Source: a virus
Taxonomy: Duplodnaviria > Caudoviricetes
Virus record (IMG/VR): IMGVR_UViG_3300033463_000085
Span: 12,903 to 76,902 of that record
Reading direction: 5' to 3' (one strand)
DNA length: 64,000 nucleotides
Shown piece after piece: positions 11,121-23,728 of this stretch. A program made the translations under genes and the position numbers. Position 1 is the first letter of the stretch. Each line of letters begins with the position of its first letter. The notes under the pieces are model-generated. The model searched no databases. It was not told where the DNA came from and saw nothing but the letters and a program-made list of their open reading frames with translations.

Positions 11121-12356
11121 TCATAACTGCCGCTTCTCCGTCGGCGCGATTCCGAGTATTTCTTCTATCACGGCGACATTTTTCTGCAATCGGGCGTCGT
11201 TCGGCGCGACCTTGAGCGCGTTTCTTGCCGCCTCAAGCGACCCGGAGCGGTCGCCCGTATTCCACTTGGCGAGCGAAAGCAAGTCCCAAGGCTTGTAGCC
11301 CCAGCACCAGTCCTTCGTAAGGTATGTGTAGCACCGCTGACGCACCGACAGGGCGCGTTGAGCGGCGTTCAGGCATACGCTCCACCAAAGGGCCGCGTCG
11401 GCCTTGTCGCCGCCGCTGGCGCGGTCGTGGGCCATCTGCGCAAGCTCCATCGCGGCCTCGCGCTGTTCGGGGGCCTCGGCCATCGCCTTGTAGTACCAAT
11501 CCACGGCCTCCGTTGGCTTGCCAGTCTCGCACAGGCACTTCGCTATGAGGCGCATGGACGCGGCCCTCTCCGGCCTCCACACGGCCCTCGGCATCGACAA
11601 GTGCCGCTTTAGGGCCGCCAACGCCTCGCCGTAGCGTCCGTTGAACACATATTCGCGCCCAAGATAGTGCGCGTTGCGGTCGTCGTCGGGGCATTCGCGG
11701 ACGGAAAGTTCAAGGAGCCGCAAATACGATTCCCTGCTCTTGCCGGGGTCTGAATGGTGTTCGAGCCTCATGCCGGGTATGGCGACCTCCACGCGCTCCG
11801 CGCCGCCGTAGTCCAGGACTTCGTGGACGGGGTGCGTCCATCGGCACAGGCCGTGGGCGTGAACCTTCTTGTAGGTGAACTTCGAGCCGTCCGTTCCGTC
11901 GGCGTTGAAGTTCCACACATACTCGTATGTCCCCGTCGTCGGCTTGCGGCCCTTTGCGACCGCATCGGCCCATGCGGCCTCCAGTTTCGCCCTCCAGCCG
12001 GGACAAAGAACCTCGTCGAGGTCTGTGCAGACGCATATGTCCGTGTCCGGCGGGATGAGGCGCATCGAATCGTTCCTCGCCCAATCGAAGCGCCACGGCT
12101 TCGGGAAGCGTGTGGGGTTCGCCATGTGGTCTAGTAGGGCGCGGCTGTATTCGTCCGGCGTTTTCCAATTGGCGTATGTCGTCGTATCGACGAACGCGCC
12201 GCATTCGCGGAGGAGGGCCACCGTTCCGTCGGTCGAGCCCGTGTCGAGGACTACTATGTCGTCCGCCTCCTTCATGGAATCCACCCAGCGGCGGACAAAC
12301 TTCTCCTCGTTGAAGGAGATTGCATAGACGGTGATTTTCATTGGTCGTGTTCCCAT
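11121..12356 (-). CDS. Glycosyltransferase family 2 with C-terminal TPR repeats
   Basis: VYAISFNEEKFV, VLDTGSTDGT, DFARNDS-like, TDLDE (DxD), VHE, then a TPR-like helical region. Confidence 0.9.
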   Translation of the reverse strand: MGTRPMKITVYAISFNEEKFVRRWVDSMKEADDIVVLDTGSTDGTVALLRECGAFVDTTTYANWKTPDEYSRALLDHMANPTRFPKPWRFDWARNDSMRLIPPDTDICVCTDLDEVLCPGWRAKLEAAWADAVAKGRKPTTGTYEYVWNFNADGTDGSKFTYKKVHAHGLCRWTHPVHEVLDYGGAERVEVAIPGMRLEHHSDPGKSRESYLRLLELSVRECPDDDRNAHYLGREYVFNGRYGEALAALKRHLSMPRAVWRPERAASMRLIAKCLCETGKPTEAVDWYYKAMAEAPEQREAAMELAQMAHDRASGGDKADAALWWSVCLNAAQRALSVRQRCYTYLTKDWCWGYKPWDLLSLAKWNTGDRSGSLEAARNALKVAPNDARLQKNVAVIEEILGIAPTEKRQL

Positions 12357-12376
12357 TCAGCAGACAGCCAAACCCG

Positions 12377-12919
12377 TCAATCTTCGACCTCAACCATGTC
12401 GGCGAGCATCTTCTGGGTGTTGGCGTATGCCTTGTCGAGAAGCCCCGGACGGAGGATGTCGGCGTTGAAGTGTCCGCCGCGACCCTTGCCGCTCACGACG
12501 GAATCGACGATGTGCTCGATTACGTCTATGAGGTTGATGTCCTCCGGCGGCGCATCCTCGATGTGGTGGCGCTCGTAGCGCGTGTGGTAGTGCGCGGCCC
12601 AATCGCTCAACCGCCAGTCTGACTCGCGGATTTCGCCCTTCTGCTTTGCGGAGAAGTGGTTGTAGTATTCGTCGAAGAATTCCATCTTCGTCCAGTCGTG
12701 CTTCGCGCCGCGCTGGCGTATGATTTCCGCCATGCGCTCCATGCCGCGCCGGACATCGCGCCTGTGGGCGACGACGGCCTCGCGCAGCTCCTCCTTGCCG
12801 ACGGCGTGGGTCGCGGTCGAGGCGGACGCGGACGGCGTGGGGTGGATGACCATGCGCTTGCGCTCGTCTGATGTCATTGCGAGCGCGTTGGCGACGATGG
12901 GATTTGTCGATGTCAGCAT
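12377..12919 (-). CDS. HD-like (DUF5662-like) protein with NPIV leader
   Basis: HDWTK, HHIE, DVIEHIVD; N-terminus MLTSTNPIVANAL matches the leaders of ORF 17247-18989. Confidence 0.6.
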   Translation of the reverse strand: MLTSTNPIVANALAMTSDERKRMVIHPTPSASASTATHAVGKEELREAVVAHRRDVRRGMERMAEIIRQRGAKHDWTKMEFFDEYYNHFSAKQKGEIRESDWRLSDWAAHYHTRYERHHIEDAPPEDINLIDVIEHIVDSVVSGKGRGGHFNADILRPGLLDKAYANTQKMLADMVEVED

Positions 12920-13055
12920 TTGTCGCTTTCCTTTCCTTGTGGCGGCGGCGCGTCGTGCGCGGCCTTAGGCAGTCCCGAGAGCGGGACGCAAACATGGTTC
13001 TTGAGCCAGGCGGCGGCCTCCGCGTGGGTGGGACATTCCCTGTCCGCGCATTTCG

Positions 13056-13829
13056 TCATGGCATCCTCTCCCAGCGCGAGCGGACGGAATACCGCTCGTC
13101 CATCCACCTGCGGAATCCGGCCACGGCGAATGCGTTGTCGTTTATCGAGAATCCGGCGAACTTGTCGGCGCGGCCTTGCTGCATGAGGTCGAGCGTGTTG
13201 CGCGGGAACTTCCTGTCCATTCGCCACACGAGCTTGCGTTTGCCGCAGTTGCGGAGGAGCCATGCGTTGGCGAACAGCGAGTGGAAGTTTGCGCCCACAT
13301 CGCCGTCCTTGAGGGTGAGGGCGTAGTCCGAAAGCTCCTGCACGATACGCCAGTCGTCGGCGTGGAAGAATGTGTTGAAGTGCTGCGAGAAGTCCATCGC
13401 GGGCATCCCGTGCTCAAGGAGCGCTTCGCGGGCTAGATACAGCGACACATCGAAATTGTTCCCCCCCTCCGCCATCTGCTCGCGGGCGAGGAGCATCGCG
13501 TTCTTCCAATACTGCGGGGCCGTGTCGAAGTCTCTCGGACGGGTGAGGAAATGGTCGTCGGCGGAGAACAGGAATTCACCCTCCACCAATCCGGCCTTGC
13601 AAGCCGCTATAACCTTCGCGCCGAGGTTGCGAGTCTTGCGTTTGCATGGGTCTGGCATCTTGAGGACTTCGCCGGAAAACCAGTCGGGCGCGTAGCCGAC
13701 GACGACGGGCTCGACATTCACCTCGCCGTCCGAGCCGCGAGCGTATCTCTCAAGGGAGCGGAGCGACCAGCGGAACTCGATGTTTCCGTTGGTGGAGCCC
13801 TCCCCCATGACATAGAGAATCTTCATCAT
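13056..13829 (-). CDS. Stealth-like sugar-phosphotransferase/glycosyltransferase
   Basis: True start MMKILYV; EFRWSLRSLERYA resembles Stealth ELRYSLRS; FLFSADDHF; FSINDN near the C-terminus. Confidence 0.6.
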   Translation of the reverse strand: MMKILYVMGEGSTNGNIEFRWSLRSLERYARGSDGEVNVEPVVVGYAPDWFSGEVLKMPDPCKRKTRNLGAKVIAACKAGLVEGEFLFSADDHFLTRPRDFDTAPQYWKNAMLLAREQMAEGGNNFDVSLYLAREALLEHGMPAMDFSQHFNTFFHADDWRIVQELSDYALTLKDGDVGANFHSLFANAWLLRNCGKRKLVWRMDRKFPRNTLDLMQQGRADKFAGFSINDNAFAVAGFRRWMDERYSVRSRWERMP

Positions 13830-14548
13830 ATCGCGGCCTCCCTGTAGCATTCGCGCAGCATCCCCATTCGGGCGTATCTGCGCTGCTGGCCCACCGCGCT
13901 CGTTATGCCGCCGAGGTCGGCCTGTTCCGCGCAGCATGGGAACGAACAATACATCTTGAGGGACGGGTCGCGGCGGTTCATGTAGTAGAAATACTGGTCG
14001 GAAAGGCACATCTTGCCCTCGCCTCTCGCCGCCGCCTCCTGGAAGTAAAGCCACGCCTCCATGCCTTTTCGGGAGAGCGCCCAGCAAGCCGTTGAGCGCA
14101 AGTCCGTAAACCTCTTCCAGTAGCCGTTCACGAGCGGGGCCTTCATGAGCGCGTCGCATTCCTCGTCCGTCGCCTTGCCGCGAACGACCCAATCGAGCAT
14201 GGCGATGTCGTAGTCGTCCGGCAGAGCCTCCACAATCCTTCCGAGCAGGGTCTTGTCCTTGAGGAAGCGGGCGTCGTCCTCCAGTATCAGGACGCTCCTC
14301 TTGCCAAGCTCGTATGCCGTGCGGACGATTCTGTTGTGGTTCAAGGTGCAGTCCATCCAGCCGCCCTTGCACATCCGCGTGTGGCGGACATTGGCTTCGA
14401 TGACGCGGACGTATGGGTTTTCGCATCCCCAGAAAGGGACGAACGAGAAGCCGACGCGCATCGTCTCGCGCTCAAGCATCTCGGCGTTCTGCGGCTTCTT
14501 CGAGAAAAGAACGGCCGCCTTCATGTCGAACCTGTCCCAGCAGTTCAT
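13826..14548 (-). CDS. Glycosyltransferase family 25-like
   Basis: DCTLNHNRIV...VLILEDDARF, STACWALSRKG, DQYF. Confidence 0.8.
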   Translation of the reverse strand: MNCWDRFDMKAAVLFSKKPQNAEMLERETMRVGFSFVPFWGCENPYVRVIEANVRHTRMCKGGWMDCTLNHNRIVRTAYELGKRSVLILEDDARFLKDKTLLGRIVEALPDDYDIAMLDWVVRGKATDEECDALMKAPLVNGYWKRFTDLRSTACWALSRKGMEAWLYFQEAAARGEGKMCLSDQYFYYMNRRDPSLKMYCSFPCCAEQADLGGITSAVGQQRRYARMGMLRECYREAAI

Positions 14549-14589
14549 TTGTCGTGTTCTCCTGTGTTTTCCATTTGTTTTCCCGCCTT

Positions 14590-14630
14590 GAAAACCGACG
14601 CCCCAACCCCGTGTGGGGAAGGGGCGCAGT
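14590..14630 (-). terminator. Hairpin/terminator after the capsid gene
   Basis: GCGCCCCTTCCCC-ACAC-GGGGTTGGGGCGT followed by CGGTTTT on the minus strand. Confidence 0.55.
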
Positions 14631-14657
14631 TTTGTCTATCCCGCTTGCGGGTCGGGA

Positions 14658-15704
14658 TTAGGCCTCGCCCGACGAGGACGAGCTGGACGAGCTGGAGCTG
14701 TCGGTCGCCGGGGTCTTGGCCGAGACGAGACGGACGATCTTGGTCGGCTGAATGAGCTTCGCGCCGAACAGGCTCTCGCAGGTCGCCACGGTGTCGCCCG
14801 TGCGCCAGTCGCCGCCGCGACGCCACTGGAGGACGAGGCCGGAGGCCGGGTCGCTCGAAGTGCCGAGGTCGCGGTAGAGCTCGGGGTCGACAATCTCGAT
14901 GGTGCGGGAGCCGACGGCGATGGCCGTCTCGGGGATGATTGCGCCGAGAAGGTTCGTGTCGTTCAGCTCGTCCATCTCGATGACGGCCTTGTAGCCGAGG
15001 AGGGCCGGAATCGTGCCGTTCTGCACGGCCTCCGGGCTGCCGTAGGAGTGCGCCTCGAGGTCGGCGAGGAGTTCCGCGTACTTCTCGGGACGGAGCGCGA
15101 GGACGCAGCGGCGGATTGCGAGGTCGTTGTTCACGGCCGCAACGCGAATCTTCGCCGCGAGCTTCTTCGTCAGCTCGCCGTTGCCAAGGACGAACTCGTT
15201 GGCGGCGGAGAACTTGAGCGTGCTCTTGGTCTCGATTTCCTCGCCGTCCTCGTTCACGAAGGTGGTCGTGTCGGTGCCGCTCGTCGGGATGTTCTCCTTG
15301 GTGATGAGGCCGCCGACGATGTTGGCGATGCGGCGACCGACAGCCTCCGAGGAGGAGTTGGCCGTCTTGAGGAGCAGGGCCTTGTTCGTGCCGGACGGAA
15401 GCATGGTGGCCTTCGCCTCGGAGAACTTGAACGAGTGCTTGATGTGCTTGTTGCAGCCCATCGAGACGAACTTCACCTCGCCGTCGTAGTGACCGTAGTT
15501 GTTCGTTTCGCGGTCGTAATCCTTCGCCTCACCGTTGATGATGTAGGGGATGAGGATGGAGCCGCCAGCGGTCATGGTGTCGGGCGAGAAGTCCGTGGTG
15601 AACTGCGAAATCTTCACGATGTCCTTGCGGAGCATCATGATTGTCTGGTTTGCGACGTAGCGCAGACCGGGCGATGCGATTGAACCGAGGTCGGGTTTAC
15701 CCAT
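14658..15704 (-). CDS. Major capsid protein with a poly-serine C-terminal tail
   Basis: 348 aa, directly after protease/scaffold; HK97-like features (GSILIP, ETAIAVGSR, ESLFGAKLIQP); strong RBS; ten Ser codons at 14670-14699. Confidence 0.85.
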   Translation of the reverse strand: MGKPDLGSIASPGLRYVANQTIMMLRKDIVKISQFTTDFSPDTMTAGGSILIPYIINGEAKDYDRETNNYGHYDGEVKFVSMGCNKHIKHSFKFSEAKATMLPSGTNKALLLKTANSSSEAVGRRIANIVGGLITKENIPTSGTDTTTFVNEDGEEIETKSTLKFSAANEFVLGNGELTKKLAAKIRVAAVNNDLAIRRCVLALRPEKYAELLADLEAHSYGSPEAVQNGTIPALLGYKAVIEMDELNDTNLLGAIIPETAIAVGSRTIEIVDPELYRDLGTSSDPASGLVLQWRRGGDWRTGDTVATCESLFGAKLIQPTKIVRLVSAKTPATDSSSSSSSSSSGEA

Positions 15705-15759: not shown

Positions 15760-17070
15760 TTACTTGTCCGCCATTTCCTCAAGGGCCTTGATTTCCTTTT
15801 CGGGGTCGCCTCCGCAAGACGCGAGCGCATCCTTCATGTTGATGACGGTGGGCTTCTTGGCGGCGGCGTTCTCGACGCGGGTGTGCGTCTTGACGGGCTC
15901 ACCCGGCTTCTTCGGGGTCTGCGCGTTGGCGACGGCCTTCTTCGCGACGAGGCGGAAGTTGGCGACGGTCTTCTGCGCGGCCTCGGGGTTGGCCTTGAAC
16001 TCCTCCTTGAGGGTTTCCTTGGCCTCTTCCGGGATGACATCCTCGTTCTGCGTGACGAAGGTGTTTGCCTCGTTGTCGAGCTTTTCGGCCTTGAGGGTTT
16101 CCAGCTCGTCGGCCTTGCCCTGGAGGTCAGCGTTTGCGGTCTGGAGGTCGCCGCAGTTCTGGACGAGCCTGTTCACGGCCTCGACAGTCTCTTCGGGAGT
16201 GCTCTTCGTGTCGATGCCAAGCGCGTTCTGCACCTGTTCGACAACGCCACACTTCGCGACGAGGGCATCGAAAGCCTGCTCAACATCTTCATCCTTCGCG
16301 TCGGCGGGGAGTCCGAGTTTTGCACGAATATCCATGTCGTGTGTTTCCTTTTTTGGTTTGTGGGTTGTGATTTCCGGCTCCTGTTTCGGAGTCGGCGTTG
16401 CTGCCGTGCCTTTGTTCTCTTCGGCGTTCGCGGTTGCGCTTGGCACCTTTGCCGTCACGCCATCCGCGTTTGCGGCGGTGGCTCCCGGCTGTGTCTTATT
16501 TCCCGCTTGGCTGTTGAGCATCGGAGCGACAGGTAAATTGGGGCGGTTCGTGAGGCCGACGGAAACCAGCTCCTCTGGGCGGTTGTCGTCGTCGAGCGTC
16601 CACGCGGCTGAAACGAATCTGTAGACCTTGCCGTTGATTGTTTCCGCGCCGAGGGAGGTCGGCTCTATTTCTGCCATGAGGCCCTTGGCCTCGTCCTTGA
16701 ATAGGCGGGCGACCCATGCCATCGCCCTCGTGTCCGTGGAAAGCTCGGAGGAGTGGTCTGCGTCCACGAGGACTTTCCTGTTGGGGTCGAATTTGGCGAT
16801 GAGCGCGTCTATGGCTTTCTCGTCCACCTTCTGGACGACCTCGCGGCGTCCGTCGCGGGCCGTCGGGTCCTCGACCTCCTCCTCAACCGTCTGGCCGTCC
16901 ACGACCTTGGATATGACGCGCTTGCCGTCCTGTGCGGTTTCGTCCTCGACCCATTGCGGATATTCGCCGACGGGGGCGAGCTGTATGACGAGGGGCTTGC
17001 CTACCTCTGCGCTCTTCTCCGCAGGTAGGTCGAATGCGACCGCGTTTGTTATGACCTTCTTCGTCGTCAT
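15760..17070 (-). CDS. Mu I-like prohead protease with C-terminal scaffold
   Basis: QLAPVGEY, VLVDADH, YRFVSAAW, LVSVGLTNRPNL; internal ATG with RBS (MDIRAKLGLPADA) starts the scaffold-like half. Confidence 0.9.
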   Translation of the reverse strand: MTTKKVITNAVAFDLPAEKSAEVGKPLVIQLAPVGEYPQWVEDETAQDGKRVISKVVDGQTVEEEVEDPTARDGRREVVQKVDEKAIDALIAKFDPNRKVLVDADHSSELSTDTRAMAWVARLFKDEAKGLMAEIEPTSLGAETINGKVYRFVSAAWTLDDDNRPEELVSVGLTNRPNLPVAPMLNSQAGNKTQPGATAANADGVTAKVPSATANAEENKGTAATPTPKQEPEITTHKPKKETHDMDIRAKLGLPADAKDEDVEQAFDALVAKCGVVEQVQNALGIDTKSTPEETVEAVNRLVQNCGDLQTANADLQGKADELETLKAEKLDNEANTFVTQNEDVIPEEAKETLKEEFKANPEAAQKTVANFRLVAKKAVANAQTPKKPGEPVKTHTRVENAAAKKPTVINMKDALASCGGDPEKEIKALEEMADK

Positions 17071-17174
17071 GGTTGGTGTGTGCCTTTGCTATATGTTGCC
17101 GAAGCCGTCAACCTATCTCGCTCTTCATTTTCGCGGGGTCACGAAAATGGGCCGGAGCGGAACTGCTAGGGGCG

Positions 17175-17220
17175 AAAAAGAAACCGCCCGCAAGGAGGTT
17201 GGCTTTTCCCTTGCGGACGG
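17175..17220 (-). terminator. Intrinsic terminator
   Basis: CCGCCCGCAAGG / CCTTGCGGACGG inverted repeat, followed on the minus strand by TTTCTTTTT. Confidence 0.65.
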
Positions 17221-17246
17221 CGGGTGCGAAGATTTCGCGTTCGTCG

Positions 17247-18989
17247 CTACAGCGCGGACATCCAAGCGATTGCGTTCTTGAGTCCGGCCACGGCCTTTTC
17301 AAATTCAGCGAGAAAAGGTTTCGCCTTGGCAATGACTTCCTTTGGAGTTTCCCCCTCAATTCTTGGTCCAAAACTGACATTAAGACCGGAATACAGACCG
17401 TCTCCGAATGTATAGGCGGTCACATTGCCGAACTGCTTTTTGGTCATCGCGTTCGTGACGACTGCGTTCGCAACCTTGAATTCGCCGCGCTGCGTGTGGG
17501 CGCGTGGCGTCATCGTGAAGCCCGTCTTGCCTCTGCCGTAATCCACGAAGGCGAAAATGTAGTCCGGCTCGAACTTTGCCTTGAGCTGGTCGAGCGCGGG
17601 ACGCGCCTTGCGGTCGGCGAGGATTGTGATTTTGCCGTTGCCACGCTCGATGAGGCTGGTCACGCCATCCGTGTAGCCCTCAAGCGAGCCTTGAGGGAAC
17701 TTCGTCTGGATGTTGGACTTGATGTAGCGAATCAACGGCTCGTTGGCGTTCTTGGCGACCGTGGCGTTCAGGGCCTTTTGGACGATTGGGTTTGTGCTTT
17801 TCATTTCGTAGTTCCTTGTTGAGTTTTTCGCTTTGGACGTGTCGTTTGCGGTGGAGGCGTTGGCATTTGCGGCCCGAAGGTGTCGTATGTCCATAACCCA
17901 TGTACCGCCCTTGTCGAATCTTACTCTCGCCCGCTGGGGTTCTTTTGGATCATCCTCGAGCCATTCAATCGTCCCCGTCCCCATCGAGCCAAACTTTGAG
18001 GGTATTTCAACAACCCTCTGCCCCTCTTTGAACTTGGCGTTGGCGACAGCCTTGCGGATGCCCTTGGCCCACGATTCAGATACATTCGGGTCGATTCCGG
18101 CGCGTTCAAGAGTGCGGCGTGCGACGACCTTGCACGATATGCCTTCCTCGTCCTTGATTTCCTTGAACACCTCCTGCGCGTCCTCGCGGTATTCATTTCC
18201 GGCGAGGATGCAAGCGCCGGACATCGAGGGCGTGACAACGAACCATTGATACTTGTTCTTGTAGTTGAAATTCGCGGCCACGGCGTTAGGCATTACCACG
18301 CGAAGAACCGCGCCCAACTGCTCTAGCTTCGCGCCGAGGCGCTTGGCAACAGTCGCCACATCGTGCTTTGCCTTTTCGTGGGCTGCGTCCGCATCCATGT
18401 CTGATAGGTTGCGCTTGCACACCTTCCAGGCGGCAGCTTTCTTCTTGAGGGCTTCGACGAGGGCCGGGTCGGGCTTCTCGGCCGTGACGATTACATGGAA
18501 GTCGTCAATCCACTTGTCGTTTGCCGTGGCAGCGCTCCGGGCAAGCGGGTCCGCCACCTTAGCCTGCGCATTGCCAATGAGGTCTACGATGCACCCCGAG
18601 CCGAAGCGGCGATGGGCCTCCTTCTCGGCGGCCTTGTAGTTTGGGGCTTCAATCACTACGGAGCGGCCCGATTTTGTCGTCACGGCGAACTTGGCGTTCA
18701 CATAGGGGTTGCCCTTGACGGTGAACAGAACGCCGTCGGCTCGCACATCTGCGACTTCTAGCTTGTCGCGGGGGAATCCCGGCTCTGCCATTATGGCGTC
18801 TGGCAAGCGGCCCTTGACGCCTTTCTTGTCGCGGAACTCGACCCACACGAACCACGCGTCCACCTTGGCGGACAGCTTGGGGCACTTGCGGTTGATTTCC
18901 CCGACGAGGACAGACGGCCTCCTGTTGGGGTCGTAGGTTTTCGTCGTGGCGTTCAGCGCCTTCTGCACTATCGGATTTTTGCTTGTCAT
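17247..18989 (-). CDS. Modular head-associated protein, candidate polyprotein
   Basis: 580 aa between portal and protease; duplicated leader NPIVQKALNAT; recurrent x-N-A motifs between small modules. Confidence 0.75.
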   Translation of the reverse strand: MTSKNPIVQKALNATTKTYDPNRRPSVLVGEINRKCPKLSAKVDAWFVWVEFRDKKGVKGRLPDAIMAEPGFPRDKLEVADVRADGVLFTVKGNPYVNAKFAVTTKSGRSVVIEAPNYKAAEKEAHRRFGSGCIVDLIGNAQAKVADPLARSAATANDKWIDDFHVIVTAEKPDPALVEALKKKAAAWKVCKRNLSDMDADAAHEKAKHDVATVAKRLGAKLEQLGAVLRVVMPNAVAANFNYKNKYQWFVVTPSMSGACILAGNEYREDAQEVFKEIKDEEGISCKVVARRTLERAGIDPNVSESWAKGIRKAVANAKFKEGQRVVEIPSKFGSMGTGTIEWLEDDPKEPQRARVRFDKGGTWVMDIRHLRAANANASTANDTSKAKNSTRNYEMKSTNPIVQKALNATVAKNANEPLIRYIKSNIQTKFPQGSLEGYTDGVTSLIERGNGKITILADRKARPALDQLKAKFEPDYIFAFVDYGRGKTGFTMTPRAHTQRGEFKVANAVVTNAMTKKQFGNVTAYTFGDGLYSGLNVSFGPRIEGETPKEVIAKAKPFLAEFEKAVAGLKNAIAWMSAL

Positions 18990-19024
18990 AAGTGCTTGCC
19001 TTTCATTTTCTTTAAGTTAGCCCC

Positions 19025-19053
19025 TTGCGGGTGCGGGTTTGATTTGCTAAACT
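19025..19053 (+). promoter_or_regulatory. Promoter antisense to the 3' end of the portal gene
   Basis: CCCC-TTGCGG, 17 nt, TAAACT; spacer closely matches P1 (GTG...GATTTGC). Confidence 0.65.
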
Positions 19054-19127
19054 ATGCACCGACCGAGGAAGAGTCGATGCACCGTCTAGGGCGTAAGCTG
19101 GGGCTCCGCAAGGGGATTGATAGCACA

Positions 19128-21449
19128 TCACTCGCTCCTCGGTTGGCCTTTTATGATGTAGGCGGACACGATTTTCAGCGTCTTGCTTTTCGTGTCGGGA
19201 ACCGCCTCCTGGACGGAAAGGTGTCCGTTGATGCGCTTGCGGATTTCAATTACGGGCGACGGCTTGTTGTCGCCGCCCTTGTATTCCTTCGAGAACACCT
19301 GCTTGCCGTTCGCGTCCTTTAGGATGTTCACGCTGTCGAAGTGGTGCATGACATATCCGAGCCGCCCGAGGTGGCTTGCGTCCGCCATCGTCGTGTCGGC
19401 CTCGCCGTTTTCGCCGTGCCGCTTGTCGATGTGGCGGACATGGTTGCCCTGAAGCTCAATCTTCCATCCGGCGACATCTACTCCGAGCTTGTCCTTGACC
19501 TCCTTGGCGAGCGCTTGCGGGGCCTTGCATATCTCGATGCTGGACTTGTTGCGCGTTTCGTCGTCGGCCTTCTGCATCCTCTCCACGAAATCCACGACAT
19601 TCTTGTTCGTCGAAGCCTTGTATTCCGCGATGCTGTGCTGCTCCTCCGGCGAGTGCCCGTCCTTGTCGGCGGTCTTGCTGACCCCGTGGGTTTCGCAATG
19701 CGTGCATCCGCCGTCTTTGCGCGTCTCGTAGCCGCACACCTTGCAGGGCGGATTGTGGCCGTTCGCCACGACGGCATTGGGAGCGGGCGCTGCGCCCGTG
19801 GGCTGCTTTGCAATCTGCTCGCCGAAAGCCTCGTTCATCTGCTCGGCGATGACCTCCGCCATAGCGGGGTCGTCTGGAATGAGGGAATCAAGCTCAAGGC
19901 GGAGCTTAGTTGCGGCCTCGGCCCGCTCCTCCTCCGGCATGGCGAGGATGGCGTTCAGCCTGTCGGCCACGGCCTTGAAGTCGTCCTGCAACGACGCGGC
20001 AAGTTCGCTCGCCGCGCCAGACGCGCCAGAAACGCCCTCTGCGGCGTTTGAGGCCACGGGGGGTATGGTTGCCCCTCCGGCGGCCTCCGGCGCTTTCTGC
20101 GTTGGCGTAGGCGGCGTTTTCGAGGGGTCGGGGACGACGATGCCGCGTCCGGGATTGCCGTTCAGCCCGAAACCGCCCCCGTCCGGCTCCTTTTTCTTGC
20201 GAATCGTGAAGCCGGAGAGCTGCGACAATTCGTTTTCGTCCATCTCGTATCCGGCGTTCGAGAACTTGCCCGCAAGCTCCGCCACCTCGTCGGGCGTGAG
20301 CTTCGCGGATGTGTCGAGCTGGAATTCCGCGAGGACTGGCTTGCCCTTGAAGTCCTTGCAGTCCTTGATGAGCTGTTCGCAAAGCTGCTTGTGGAACACA
20401 TTTGACAGGAGGCGGGTGTCGGCGCGGACAATCTGCTTCCACACCTCCATCTGCGCGTTTCCGGCGAGCGTTCCGCTTCCCGATTCCGCAAGGGATGTGA
20501 GCGTTCCGCCAGTCGAAAGAAGCACAAACAGCTTCATCTGATGCTCGATGAATTCCGTAAACGGATTCGTGCCGCGTGATTCGGAGGCATAATCCACCTC
20601 CGAGCCGAATGGAATAACGCCGGAGCGGCCCTCAAACACATTCTCCGCAGCCTGTAGGTAGTCTTTGACCTCTTTTTCAGATGTCAGCTCCGGCATGGTG
20701 ATTATGACGGGCGGGAGGCCGTATGTTTCAAGGAAACGGCTCCAGTCGCGCTCGCCGACGGACGCGCGGAGGAATATCATGAGGGCGGGCCAGTCAATCT
20801 GCCTCTTGCGTGCGACGACAATCGTATCGTCCGGCGGAAGGACGGTCATCTTCCCGTCCGATGCGGACGGCTCGGCGTAGGAGGATGCGTCAGGGTTCCA
20901 CAGCCATTTGCGCTCGCTCCTGTCGTAGCACAGGTTCCAATGGTCGAGGCATTCGAGATGGTTTGGCATTCCGTCCGTGCCGAAGTAGGTGTTGAGGACG
21001 GAGAATCCACGGAACGCGGAAAGCGCGAGGTGCTCGAACGCCTCGGGGAGGTTGTCGATTTTGGCTACGGCCTCTTCGAGGAATTCTATCTGCTCCTTGA
21101 CGAGCCCCTTGTCGGCGTTCCTGTTCAGCCGTTCGTTGGAGCGGACTATGCGCCAGTCGAGTTCGGCGATTGCGGAGCATCGGCGCGTGACGCAGGTAAG
21201 GAATGTGGCGTCGCAGTTCTCGATTTCGTTGTAGAGGAACTGGAGCTGCGAGAAGTTTCCGCGCCGCGCCCAATCGTAGATTGTCTGCGCCCGCTTGGCG
21301 TCAATCTGCCACAGCGGGTTCATCGCCTCGAGCATGAGCGACTGTTCCGTCTTTTGCAGACGGCCCGCTATCTTTGCGGCGAACGAGCGCAAGAATCCCG
21401 GCGTCTGCGGATTCTGTGGCGCGGACGATGGTTTCTGTTGTTCTGTCAT
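19128..21449 (-). CDS. Portal protein (Mu gp29/DUF935-like) fused to a zinc knuckle and a PBECR3-like nuclease domain
   Basis: N-terminal ~430 aa: WSRFLETYGLPPV, GTLTS...SGTLAGNAQMEV (DUF935). C-terminus: CKVC..CTHC, then HVRHIDKRHGENG...RLGYVMHHFD...KRINGHLSVQEAVPDTKSKTLKIVSAY. Confidence 0.85.
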   Translation of the reverse strand: MTEQQKPSSAPQNPQTPGFLRSFAAKIAGRLQKTEQSLMLEAMNPLWQIDAKRAQTIYDWARRGNFSQLQFLYNEIENCDATFLTCVTRRCSAIAELDWRIVRSNERLNRNADKGLVKEQIEFLEEAVAKIDNLPEAFEHLALSAFRGFSVLNTYFGTDGMPNHLECLDHWNLCYDRSERKWLWNPDASSYAEPSASDGKMTVLPPDDTIVVARKRQIDWPALMIFLRASVGERDWSRFLETYGLPPVIITMPELTSEKEVKDYLQAAENVFEGRSGVIPFGSEVDYASESRGTNPFTEFIEHQMKLFVLLSTGGTLTSLAESGSGTLAGNAQMEVWKQIVRADTRLLSNVFHKQLCEQLIKDCKDFKGKPVLAEFQLDTSAKLTPDEVAELAGKFSNAGYEMDENELSQLSGFTIRKKKEPDGGGFGLNGNPGRGIVVPDPSKTPPTPTQKAPEAAGGATIPPVASNAAEGVSGASGAASELAASLQDDFKAVADRLNAILAMPEEERAEAATKLRLELDSLIPDDPAMAEVIAEQMNEAFGEQIAKQPTGAAPAPNAVVANGHNPPCKVCGYETRKDGGCTHCETHGVSKTADKDGHSPEEQHSIAEYKASTNKNVVDFVERMQKADDETRNKSSIEICKAPQALAKEVKDKLGVDVAGWKIELQGNHVRHIDKRHGENGEADTTMADASHLGRLGYVMHHFDSVNILKDANGKQVFSKEYKGGDNKPSPVIEIRKRINGHLSVQEAVPDTKSKTLKIVSAYIIKGQPRSE

Positions 21450-21498: not shown

Positions 21499-22788
21499 TC
21501 AACCGAACCTCCTCCTAATGCCGACGGGCATCGCGATTATGCGCTTGCGGGCGGACGCCTTGATGTTGTCCTCCTGCGACATGCGGCCCGAGTCTATGCC
21601 GTGGTTGTCCCTGTCGGGAAGCCGCTCCTTCGGGGCTCCGTCCTTGTAGGTGTCGGATTCGTAGTGGGACAGCTCGTTCCAGCAGAAGGGGCAGCGCTCC
21701 GGGTCGCATACGAGCTTGGTGCGCGAGCGCATCCAGTTCACGCCTACCTCCGGCCAGTCGGGGGCCTTGTAGCAGGGCTTGAGGTTCGCGCCGAGGTGGT
21801 TTATGTTCTGATACCATCCGGCGGGGGCCGTGTCGGCGATTATCGGCGTGTCCTTGAGGCCCTTGCGGCAAATCATCTCGTAGACGGAATCGTAGTAGGG
21901 GTGGTGAAGGACGCCCTCGTCGAAATAGTAGAGGATGTCGCGGTCGTGGTCGTAGTATGTCCCCGTGAGGACTGTCGGGTCGTTCACGATGCCGAAGTCG
22001 AGGCCGTATCGCTTGTCTCGCCACGACGCTATCTGCTCGTCGGTAATCCGCTCGGCCTTGAGGTTGGCGAATATCTCGCCGCCCGTTCCGGTGGCCTCGC
22101 CGAGGAACACATGGCGGTAAAGCTCGAAGTTGGTCTTGCGCATGTGCTCGATGCGCGTCAGCACCGACGGCGGAAGCCAGCCCATCTCGATTATGTCGCG
22201 GTAGTCGGTGCGGTAGACCTTGCGTCCCGGAAACGGCTTGCACGCCTCGGAGTTTATCCAGTTGGCCGTGGACTTGGGCGGGTTGTAGGTGATTATCGTC
22301 GTGAAGGGGCGGTCGCTTCGCTGCATCGAGATTATGACATTCTCGATTTCGTCCCAGCTTGAGAATTCGTCCGACTCCTCGAACCACACGAGGCCCGTGT
22401 AGCCGAACGCGGGCTTCTTGGACTTGTGCTTGCGAGGGTCGTCGAGGCCGAGGAATGTTATGGTCTGGCCCGTGTCCTTGCGCACGAGGCGGAGCGGGTC
22501 GCCCCGCGTGTCGAACAGGTAGTCGGCGGCGAGGCGGTCTTCGCCGAGGGCGATTTTCAGCTCGTTCAGAACCGACCCCTTGAGGTCGACATGGTGCTTG
22601 CGGAAAACGACGGCGTGGCAGTCCTCGTTTCCGGCTGACGTAGTGCGGCCGCCCGTATATGTCGCCGCGAAGCTGGACTTCGCGCTGTATCGGCCACCCG
22701 GAAACCAAGCCTCCGTCGTCTTGCCCGTCACCATGTCGTTCCACGGCTCGTAGTAGACGGGTGCGATAAGCTGCTCTAGTGGTTTCAT
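21499..22788 (-). CDS. terL: Terminase large subunit (PBSX-like)
   Basis: Walker A GGRYSAKS, Walker B WFEESDEF, YNPPK, nuclease GLDFG...DP and DNHGIDSGR. Confidence 0.92.
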   Translation of the reverse strand: MKPLEQLIAPVYYEPWNDMVTGKTTEAWFPGGRYSAKSSFAATYTGGRTTSAGNEDCHAVVFRKHHVDLKGSVLNELKIALGEDRLAADYLFDTRGDPLRLVRKDTGQTITFLGLDDPRKHKSKKPAFGYTGLVWFEESDEFSSWDEIENVIISMQRSDRPFTTIITYNPPKSTANWINSEACKPFPGRKVYRTDYRDIIEMGWLPPSVLTRIEHMRKTNFELYRHVFLGEATGTGGEIFANLKAERITDEQIASWRDKRYGLDFGIVNDPTVLTGTYYDHDRDILYYFDEGVLHHPYYDSVYEMICRKGLKDTPIIADTAPAGWYQNINHLGANLKPCYKAPDWPEVGVNWMRSRTKLVCDPERCPFCWNELSHYESDTYKDGAPKERLPDRDNHGIDSGRMSQEDNIKASARKRIIAMPVGIRRRFG

Positions 22789-23059: not shown

Positions 23060-23728
23060 TTAGTTCCAATCTTCCGACTGGAAATCGTATATGGCCCTGT
23101 GAAGGGCCTCAATCTTCTGCTCGCGGGTCGACTTCTTGGCGAAGAAGCGGTCGTATACTTCCCCTGCGGCGAACGCAAGAAGCTGGATTAGGAGCGCAAG
23201 CATGAATCCGATCATGACGCCGGAATGCTTGCGCTCGACCTGTAGCGCGAGGCGGTCGTTCGCATTCACGAGCCTGTCGGCGACGGCCACCGTGCTTGCG
23301 AGCATATCTTCGACAAGCAAGCCCTCGTTCGGGACGACCTGTTTCACGCGGTCGTCGTAGAGCTCAAGCATGAGGCTGTCCTTGGTGTAGACGATTTCCG
23401 GCATGAAGCCTAGGTTGCGCTGGCACCAGGCCTTTATGAAGCCCGTCGCGTATTTGCGCTCGCCGTCCGCCCCGATGATGAACTGCTCGCCAGTCGTTCC
23501 GTCCTCAAGCTGTCGCGGAGCGACGCGGGCCGTGACGATTTTCACGGTCTTGCCCTCGCCGTTCATCTTCTTGATTAGGTCGCACATCGGCTTTATCGGC
23601 TCGCCGATGTGGTTCAAGCCGCGCCAATGGTCGTAGACGGCAAGCGTCCCGTCGAGGTCGAAGCCGTACCATCCCTTGCCCTGTGCGCCGTGTGTGTCGG
23701 GCGCGTTTCCCTGTTCCTTTTCGCTCAT
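23060..23728 (-). CDS. HAD-superfamily phosphatase-like protein with C-terminal membrane helix
   Basis: GFDLDGTLA, IVTAR, LYDDR. Confidence 0.75.
   Translation of the reverse strand: MSEKEQGNAPDTHGAQGKGWYGFDLDGTLAVYDHWRGLNHIGEPIKPMCDLIKKMNGEGKTVKIVTARVAPRQLEDGTTGEQFIIGADGERKYATGFIKAWCQRNLGFMPEIVYTKDSLMLELYDDRVKQVVPNEGLLVEDMLASTVAVADRLVNANDRLALQVERKHSGVMIGFMLALLIQLLAFAAGEVYDRFFAKKSTREQKIEALHRAIYDFQSEDWN

Follow-up and report, generated by a model that had tools for sequence, protein, structure and literature searches.

An ORF punctuated by Asn-Ala joints between the portal and prohead protease genes of a tailed phage: a candidate head-cargo polyprotein

The stretch of DNA analysed here (the window) is from an uncultured gut phage and comprises 64,000 nucleotides, bases 12903-76902 of the 76.9-kb IMG/VR virus record IMGVR_UViG_3300033463_000085, which CheckV rates as complete. 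Its minus strand carries a phage head module in which an open reading frame (ORF), P0002, lies between the genes for a Mu-type portal and a Mu-I-type prohead protease (Table 1). P0002 is built like beads on a string, from small modules joined at Asn-Ala (NA) dipeptides, and the view that it is an expandable head-module cassette is well supported by comparison with its homologues. We propose, with a probability of roughly 0.5, that the joints belong to a tag comparable to the capsid-targeting sequence (CTS) of phage T4, at which the neighbouring protease would release small basic cargo proteins in the head. A modular ORF occupies the same place between portal and protease genes in six related loci; 6/6 related contigs run from terminase through portal and modular ORF(s) to protease and capsid protein. 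Each has 2 to 4 NA-punctuated genes, some of them placed between the terminase and portal genes or beyond that of the capsid protein. Relatives of the protease (P0001) were found in metagenome-assembled genomes of Kiritimatiellia and Verrucomicrobia and in many gut and faecal metagenome contigs. Among cultured phages there was no close relative of P0002 and P0001 had only remote matches (27-36% identity), and a search of IMG/VR gave no further relatives. We take P0002 to be one of a head-module polyprotein family in a clade of uncultured phages, whose hosts are probably Kiritimatiellia or Verrucomicrobiota.

Table 1. Head-module genes, parts of P0002 and tag-bearing sites in the window (aa, amino acids; pI, isoelectric point; pLDDT, predicted local distance difference test score; GC3, GC content at third codon positions).
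Feature	Position	Strand	Remarks
Large terminase (TerL)	21499-22788	-	head module
Mu-type portal with zinc ribbon and PBECR3 nuclease-like domain (P0003)	19128-21449	-	PF06074, PF18812
Portal-cargo junction NAVVAN	19761-19778	-	non-fused portals of relatives end at aligned ...APAANKAIPN
NA-punctuated modular ORF (P0002), 580 aa, pI 9.6; candidate head-cargo polyprotein	17247-18989	-	
P0002 N-terminal leader MTSKNPIVQKALNA	18948-18989	-	same peptide at aa 396-409 and start of ORF 12377-12919
Module A, aa 15-99	18693-18947	-	poorly modelled
Module B, aa 100-141, KFAVTTKSG...GNA	18567-18692	-	pLDDT ~93
Spacer and module C, aa 142-236 (module 158-236), NDKWIDDF..., helical hairpin	18282-18566	-	
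Module D, aa 237-318, FNYKNKY...GIDPN..SW	18036-18281	-	pLDDT above 90
Module E, aa 319-376, KFKEGQRV..., small beta domain	17862-18035	-	four strands, GC3 0.57
Long linker that holds the second copy of the leader, aa 377-415, NASTAND...M396 KSTNPIVQKALNATVAKNA	17745-17861	-	
Module F, aa 416-509	17463-17744	-	pLDDT ~90
Joint VVTNA and C-terminal module G, aa 510-580, long end helix ...NAIAWMSAL, low GC3	17250-17462	-	
Mu-I-type prohead protease with scaffold-like C-terminal half (P0001)	15760-17070	-	PF10123, phrog_328
Protease N-terminal leader MTTKKVITNA (short tag form)	17041-17070	-	
Conserved AVANA near scaffold C-terminus	15922-15936	-	A379, N382, A383 invariant in six orthologues
Capsid protein (MCP) with poly-Ser tail	14658-15704	-	
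DUF5662 protein with leader MLTSTNPIVANALA	12377-12919	-	Pfam match begins at residue 44

We counted NA dipeptides ORF by ORF across the window. P0002 contains 33 Asn, and 12 of them (N13, 98, 140, 235, 317, 375, 377, 408, 414, 508, 513 and 572) are followed by Ala, against 4.3 expected from composition (p=0.0006, 5000 shuffles). The enriched context is (V)-A-x-N-A: of the Asn contexts tallied, 36% have Ala at +1 and 31% have Ala at -2. The original prediction, which had put the count in this ORF at about 12 of about 33, is confirmed in its observation on NA joints, and every string that it quoted is present. In most of the window's other ORFs the NA ratio is close to ~1.5 or lower, with counts that are very small, and no NA occurs in MCP or TerL. 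The same motif had been said to mark the genes on either side. This is borne out for the protease (7 NA vs 3.2 expected, p=0.024; VITNA, AANA, TANA, VQNA, TANA, VANA and VENA) and in part for the portal, where the quoted ASNA and APNA are present in the linker past the core, but the excess is not significant for NA alone (6 vs 3.6 expected); for A-x-N-A it is (3 vs 0.36 expected, p=0.006). NA is also about threefold enriched in 18/18 homologues of P0002 and in other NA-punctuated ORFs of related head modules; here, as in the breakpoint statistics given below, the members are not phylogenetically independent.

The limits of the modules were set from local mosaic matches to homologues (high-scoring segment pairs), which delimit seven, in line with the prediction of about seven compact units. 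In an AlphaFold model made from a 56-sequence alignment (mean pLDDT 70), modules B, D and F stand out as separate domains predicted with confidence (pLDDT ~90), while G, E and C are modelled with moderate and A with poor confidence. The segments with pLDDT below 50 are residues 141-169, 228-243, 377-394 and 508-513. Ten of the 12 NA lie inside the 23% of residues classed as linker, partly by judgement (binomial p ~1e-5), and N140 abuts a linker, so that 10-11 of the 12 are found at module borders or in low-confidence linkers. Module E, proposed earlier to be SH3/KOW-like, is predicted to be an all-beta unit, which is compatible with such a fold. The earlier remark that some modules are AT-richer also stands: GC3 is 0.56-0.57 in modules E and G and 0.74-0.82 in the others, and this difference suggests that the two were acquired more recently from a lower-GC source. 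All modules are mildly basic (pI 7.9-10), as would fit proteins packed with DNA.

The modules resisted annotation. P0002 as a whole matched no Pfam (E ≤ 0.01) or PHROG family, single modules gave no credible match in Pfam at E ≤ 1, and a Foldseek comparison of the modules with the PDB gave none at E ≤ 0.001. VIA-align returned generic matches only (Z ≤ 7.5), with C a helical hairpin and F an alpha/beta cap-like fold, and the ESM Atlas contributed only small hypothetical proteins and one RadC-linked cluster (module D). Since no module has a recognisable family or fold, an anti-defence role for them is conjecture and must be regarded as speculative. As a separate observation, the C-terminal module of most NA-punctuated ORFs is helical and finishes in ...[I/L]xGL, ...SAL or ...RGF. 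Such a module is seen in the window (17250-17462, minus strand) and at L003:6668-6982, L005:7453-7716, L006:8162-8512 and L007:8191-8748 in related loci, and may be a common anchor, for example to scaffold or portal.

Two kinds of joint can be distinguished in P0002 and its relatives: short ones (GNA, VANA, ARNA) and a longer conserved linker, [S/T]xN[P/A][I/V]Vx[K/N]A[L/M]NA, which the original prediction had missed and which makes its observation a stronger one. The full consensus of the latter, [C/R][N/R]S[T/R]N[P/A/S][I/V]V[Q/A/R][K/N]A[L/M]NA[V/A]A[K/R]N, has 52 matches in the P0002 family. The long linker and the N-terminal leader are the same peptide: a leader-type sequence, MKSTNPIVQKALNA, follows Met396 inside P0002, and the leader also opens small head-module ORFs in four related loci (L003, L005, L006 and L008). 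The DUF5662 protein of the window carries it as well, behind the glycosyltransferase genes. Because the Pfam match in this protein sets in so far from its start, the leader looks like an added N-terminal extension; a Ser/Ala/Pro-rich spacer separates it from the domain, and orthologues in L002, L003 and L007 have leader-like N-termini too. The DUF5662 protein is probably another packaged protein. One further reading of the Asn residues, as N-x-S/T glycosylation sequons (NAT and NST occur in the leader, and glycosyltransferases are encoded nearby), was rejected, the joints being mostly NAK, NAV and NAA.

The two leader copies in P0002 have 11 identical residues, yet their codons differ at 6/11 positions, with 6 synonymous and 0 non-synonymous changes. 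Only 38/54 bases are shared, and the codons for NA vary (AACGCC, AATGCG, AACGCA, AACGCG). The tag is therefore conserved at the peptide and not at the DNA level, a sign of peptide-level selection. Furthermore, a Shine-Dalgarno-like AAGGAA lies 7 nt upstream of the Met396 codon (17802-17804), which would make this Met either the fossil start of a fused gene or an internal initiation site, as for gpZ in Mu gene I. Taken with the identity of linker and leader and their peptide-level conservation, the AAGGAA makes the linkers look like the leaders of once-separate genes fused in frame.

The P0002 family is rare (18 clusters in a 90% database; a search of 1.8 billion proteins gave 53 representatives at E ≤ 0.001). 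Its members cover 8 to 100% of P0002 and reuse its small modules, differently ordered and combined, alongside other small ones; KFKxGD beta modules are the commonest unit. Across 54 family members, 147 of 565 mosaic breakpoints lie no more than 3 residues from an NA, where 64.5 were expected (~2.2-fold), and no such excess was seen for the dipeptides DA, KA and NG, counted as controls at the breakpoints of the same members. Individual cases are precise. Module A is exactly deleted in P0021, the leader running straight into module B; it follows a different leader in P0022, and module B also exists as free small genes with MTATNA-type leaders. Module C is missing from P0005-P0007 and stands at varying positions in P0009-P0018, P0006 has two extra modules inserted, and P0009 and P0010 have other module orders. 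The most widespread unit is module D, which also occurs as leaderless single-domain proteins in distant sequences (the contigs with leaderless single-module D and B proteins are short), while F is found in other contexts in P0009, P0010, P0025, P0027 and P0041, and G behind other modules in P0028 and P0035. A free leader-bearing gene of L003 (6668-6982) has a C-terminal end that looks similar to that of module G. Finally, P0013-P0018 start with MAKFK, the sequence found right after NA within other members. The idea of an expandable cassette thus gains from the comparison of homologous loci that the original prediction had called for: breakpoints concentrate near NA, deletions and insertions are exact at the joints, and homologues show gain, loss and shuffling of modules there.

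Such mosaicism could also mean that the tags are mainly recombination joints, repeated linker DNA promoting the shuffling and the peptide having no role in assembly. The coincidence of breakpoints and tags and the extreme mosaicism of the family are what this explanation would predict. It does not account for leaders on single-module genes and on the protease, and repeated DNA is not what has been kept, since 11 consecutive residues are identical between leader copies that differ at many bases, and NA codons vary. We consider it improbable.

P0001 is assigned to the Mu-I family by its profile match and gene position. It matches PF10123 with 85.2 bits (cut-off 25.2; E=8e-24) over residues 70-398, so that the post-protease half is included, and phrog_328 (head maturation protease) at E=7e-23, and its gene, with the scaffold-like C-terminal half, lies between portal and MCP as in the six loci. 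Two motifs, DADH106SSE and FVS154xAW, are invariant in six P0001 orthologues and by eye resemble DYEH and YLSAVF of Mu gpI; H106 and S154 are the putative catalytic residues. The protease itself carries the tag. The NA column of its N-terminal short form is present in 62% of 116 clade members (the N-terminus in the relative L008 is MKNPIVTNATKNA), and the whole peptide is gone from the most distant members. Near the scaffold C-terminus, the NA column of a (K/R)A(V/I)xNA motif is present in 75% of the 116 homologues, and there are further conserved NA columns where the protease domain ends (63% have N-A there, and P0001 has N-S), in the variable inter-domain linker and at two scaffold positions. 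Altogether the protease-scaffold proteins of the clade contain 911 NA vs 439 expected, a ratio of 2.07.

Homologues from the classical Mu clade (114 sequences) have an NA ratio of 1.23 and mostly AL[S/T]A as their N-terminal motif, and NA occurs in the first 20 residues in 12/114. As this clade lacks the enrichment, the NA tag is not general to Mu-I proteases but clade-specific, and an extension of the proposed cleavage to Mu-I-type proteases at large is not warranted. The start of Mu gpI, MKKHAIGIAALNA, was considered as an ancestral ALNA tag and rejected on the same figures; since the clade reads AL[S/T]A, Mu's own ALNA is best seen as a coincidental variant. An invariant FAAN near the capsid N-terminus was likewise considered as a cut site and is unsupported, as it does not have the A-x-N spacing and the Mu capsid start is unprocessed. 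A literature search on the cleavage specificity of Mu-I proteases found nothing.

Asn is the sole invariant residue of the joints, and this raises the alternative of a self-cleaving, assembly-dependent asparagine lyase, as in the coat proteins of nodaviruses (Asn-Ala) or tetraviruses, for which no protease would be needed. Nodavirus capsid maturation does cut between Asn and Ala. The known asparagine lyases require structured catalytic surroundings, however, and here the Asn lies in linkers that are variable, flexible or helical and that join unrelated modules, while the adjacent gene supplies a dedicated protease whose conserved His and Ser motifs are intact. We therefore regard self-cleavage as very improbable. 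No peptidase family or fold was found in P0002 itself (Pfam, Foldseek, VIA-align), and the only protease is the product of the neighbouring gene.

The portal gene offers a further junction. P0003 matches PF06074 at E=5e-36 (aa 72-411) and PF18812 (PBECR3) at E=3e-10, with 40.3 bits vs a cut-off of 30 (aa 643-769). It runs on from an aligned APAPNAVVAN into a CxxC...CxxC zinc ribbon and the PBECR3 domain (19128-19778). A close relative (L006:4549-6768) has PBECR2 at the same place in the portal, and more distant relatives have nothing there. As the fusion starts at NAVVAN, where unfused portals end, the cargo appears to be joined to the portal via a tag-like junction, and the portal C-terminus is itself, judging from these alignments, a swap site for nuclease-like cargo. 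Neither P0002 nor P0003 has a match to the Phage_Mu_F family in Pfam or PHROG.

A targeting or processing signal is the most economical explanation for a peptide that heads free head-module genes and the protease, recurs in the scaffold and marks the portal-PBECR3 junction. We propose that each small, mildly basic module is preceded by a tag, which may be a short x-N-A joint or the leader in full. A module may have a gene of its own that begins with the leader, or may share an ORF with others; in the latter case the linker would be the leader of the module downstream. The tag would guide the protein into the assembling prohead. The Mu-I-type protease, with its own short tag and the NA sites in its scaffold half, would then cleave the Asn-Ala joints. 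Some seven proteins (4-10 kDa) would thereby come free within the capsid, and the PBECR3 domain would probably be detached from the portal as well; the freed products would exit with the DNA at infection. These steps of targeting, cleavage by the neighbouring protease, release and ejection are inferred.

The scissile bond could be that between Asn and Ala or that following the Ala. We favour a cut after Asn, because some junctions read N-S, N-D or N-F, and because first modules start M-A-KFK, so that removal of Met gives the same N-terminus as cleavage between N and AKFK. Such a cut would place h-A-x-N at P4-P1, resembling the V-A-x-E sites of giant-phage proteases; a cut after Ala would resemble the herpesvirus sites, which are cleaved between Ala and Ser in V-N-A-S. 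A broader version of the idea, to which we hold only tentatively, is that this clade of Mu-I proteases evolved Asn specificity (h-A-x-N, cut before Ala) and runs an open tag-and-cut cargo system. Any small protein that gained the ~12-residue NPIVxKALNA leader, whether as a free gene, within the polyprotein or on the portal, would then be loaded, cut free and delivered with the DNA.

Several observations weigh against cleavage at the joints, in addition to the non-independence of the homologues noted above. The expectation that NA sites would fall in disordered linkers stood for ten sites, with N140 adjoining, and failed in two respects: N572 is the sole NA within a confident helix (the same position is not NA in P0051), and the long linker at 401-427 is predicted helical (pLDDT 73-80) and not disordered, so that a docking helix fits equally. 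In some relatives an NA lies inside module D (GIDPNAESSW). Junctions in the close homologues P0005-P0007 have N-S instead of N-A (GNSVAAN), which leaves the exact junction motif uncertain. None of the modules matches a recognisable function. Lastly, the start of the Mu capsid protein has been confirmed by protein sequencing, that is, it undergoes no N-terminal processing, and the Mu clade is without the tag; nothing known of Mu gpI therefore supports Asn-Ala specificity.

These points bear on the possibility that P0002 stays whole, as a head protein of several domains that lies inside the head or decorates its surface, and that its repeated peptide is a helix docking it to, or spacing it from, scaffold, portal or capsid. 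The N-terminal copies would then be the same docking element and not a propeptide. Linker and leader are indeed predicted helical with moderate confidence (residues 6-16 in the leader of P0002), but the GNA, VANA and ARNA joints are too short for docking helices and have kept N-A nonetheless. The similar helical modules at the C-termini of many NA-punctuated ORFs could serve as anchors, and phages commonly have decoration proteins of several domains that include small beta modules. A spacer, on the other hand, is needless before the first module, on unrelated free genes and on the protease itself, and the same dipeptide is kept in the scaffold half, the canonical protease substrate. We take an uncleaved P0002 to be a possible but doubtful alternative to tagging and cleavage.

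The closest parallel to the proposed tag-and-cut mechanism is found in phage T4. Its internal proteins (IPI, IPII, IPIII and Alt) are unrelated small basic proteins with a common short N-terminal CTS, which steers them to the scaffolding core; gp21, the prohead protease, cleaves it off at a motif that is also present in the scaffold proteins. This cargo is diverse and exits with the DNA (PMC3012670). Here, too, a short conserved leader is found on otherwise unrelated proteins (P0002, the DUF5662 protein, the small ORFs of L003, L005, L006 and L008, and the protease), and the P0002 modules are all basic like the T4 internal proteins, which are embedded in DNA. Differences are that the protease is Mu-I-type (PF10123) and not gp21-type, that the tag ends in N-A and not in L/I-x-E, and that the leader-module units, separate genes in T4, are concatenated in one ORF and shuffled between phages. 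We see an even chance that the locus works like the CTS-tagged proteins of T4, with another protease family, another tag and concatenated units.

A second parallel is provided by the polyvalent proteins of Iyer, Burroughs, Anand, de Souza and Aravind (2017), multi-domain, mosaic proteins proposed to be packaged, injected and processed into units, with processing ascribed to embedded MPTase domains and with a PBECR-portal fusion among the listed architectures (PMC5512222). P0002 resembles them in being encoded with portal and terminase head genes, in having partial and reordered matches among its orthologues and in its neighbour, a portal-PBECR fusion. It differs in that none of their catalogued domains (LPDs, MPTase, ART, PBECR) and no embedded peptidase was detected in it with Pfam, in the tiny size of its modules (40-95 aa) and in the inter-module tag that doubles as a leader, which is absent from their description. 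By its sequence, P0002 falls outside the catalogue of polyvalent proteins; what it shares with them is logic and context.

The giant phages SPN3US (gp245) and phiKZ (gp175) process head and ejection proteins at multiple sites. A-x-E, with Val preferred at P4, is where their prohead protease cleaves many proteins of the head, among them the portal and the enzyme itself (PMC10052503). (V)-A-x-N-A has the same shape if Asn is P1. The protease family and the P1 residue differ, and their cuts mostly take long N-terminal propeptides off single proteins, where those predicted here would separate a string of modules. With phage Mu (gpI/gpZ and gp30, a MuF protein) the locus shares the protease family and the order portal, accessory head gene(s), protease-scaffold, capsid. 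It has no MuF domain, P0002 standing in the MuF/G position, and differs from the Mu clade in the NA ratio and N-terminal motif given above.

A literature search found, in the paper library that it covered, no description of such tagged polyproteins in tailed phages. If the tags are cut sites, a single gene would fill the capsid with small proteins whose set can change, much as RNA viruses make use of polyproteins, and the locus would amount to an arsenal of injected proteins, open to rapid exchange, with a packaging tag that is both natural and portable. It would then be clear which sites a little-studied family of proteases recognises, ~50 small-module families would become candidate injected proteins for host takeover or anti-defence, and outside the T4 system, too, foreign proteins could be brought into capsids by means of a short peptide.

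Some minor features of the locus are recorded here. The intergenic spacers on either side of P0002 are long (17071-17246, 176 nt, and 18990-19127, 138 nt), compared with 12-40 nt between the same genes in relatives, and hold GC-rich inverted repeats containing CCGCAAGG/CCTTGCGG. The capsid protein of the window ends in ten serines (S10-GEA), and glycosyltransferase-like genes follow downstream of its gene; the tails of orthologous capsid proteins are likewise Ser-rich or Gly/Thr/Glu-rich. The Ser-tailed capsid protein and these genes (11121-15704, minus strand) are a candidate virion glycosylation system. Finally, just beyond the terminase gene, a free gene on the minus strand (23060-23728) encodes a HAD-like protein that by eye is close to the N-terminal part of P0040 from another phage, in which NA-punctuated modules follow.

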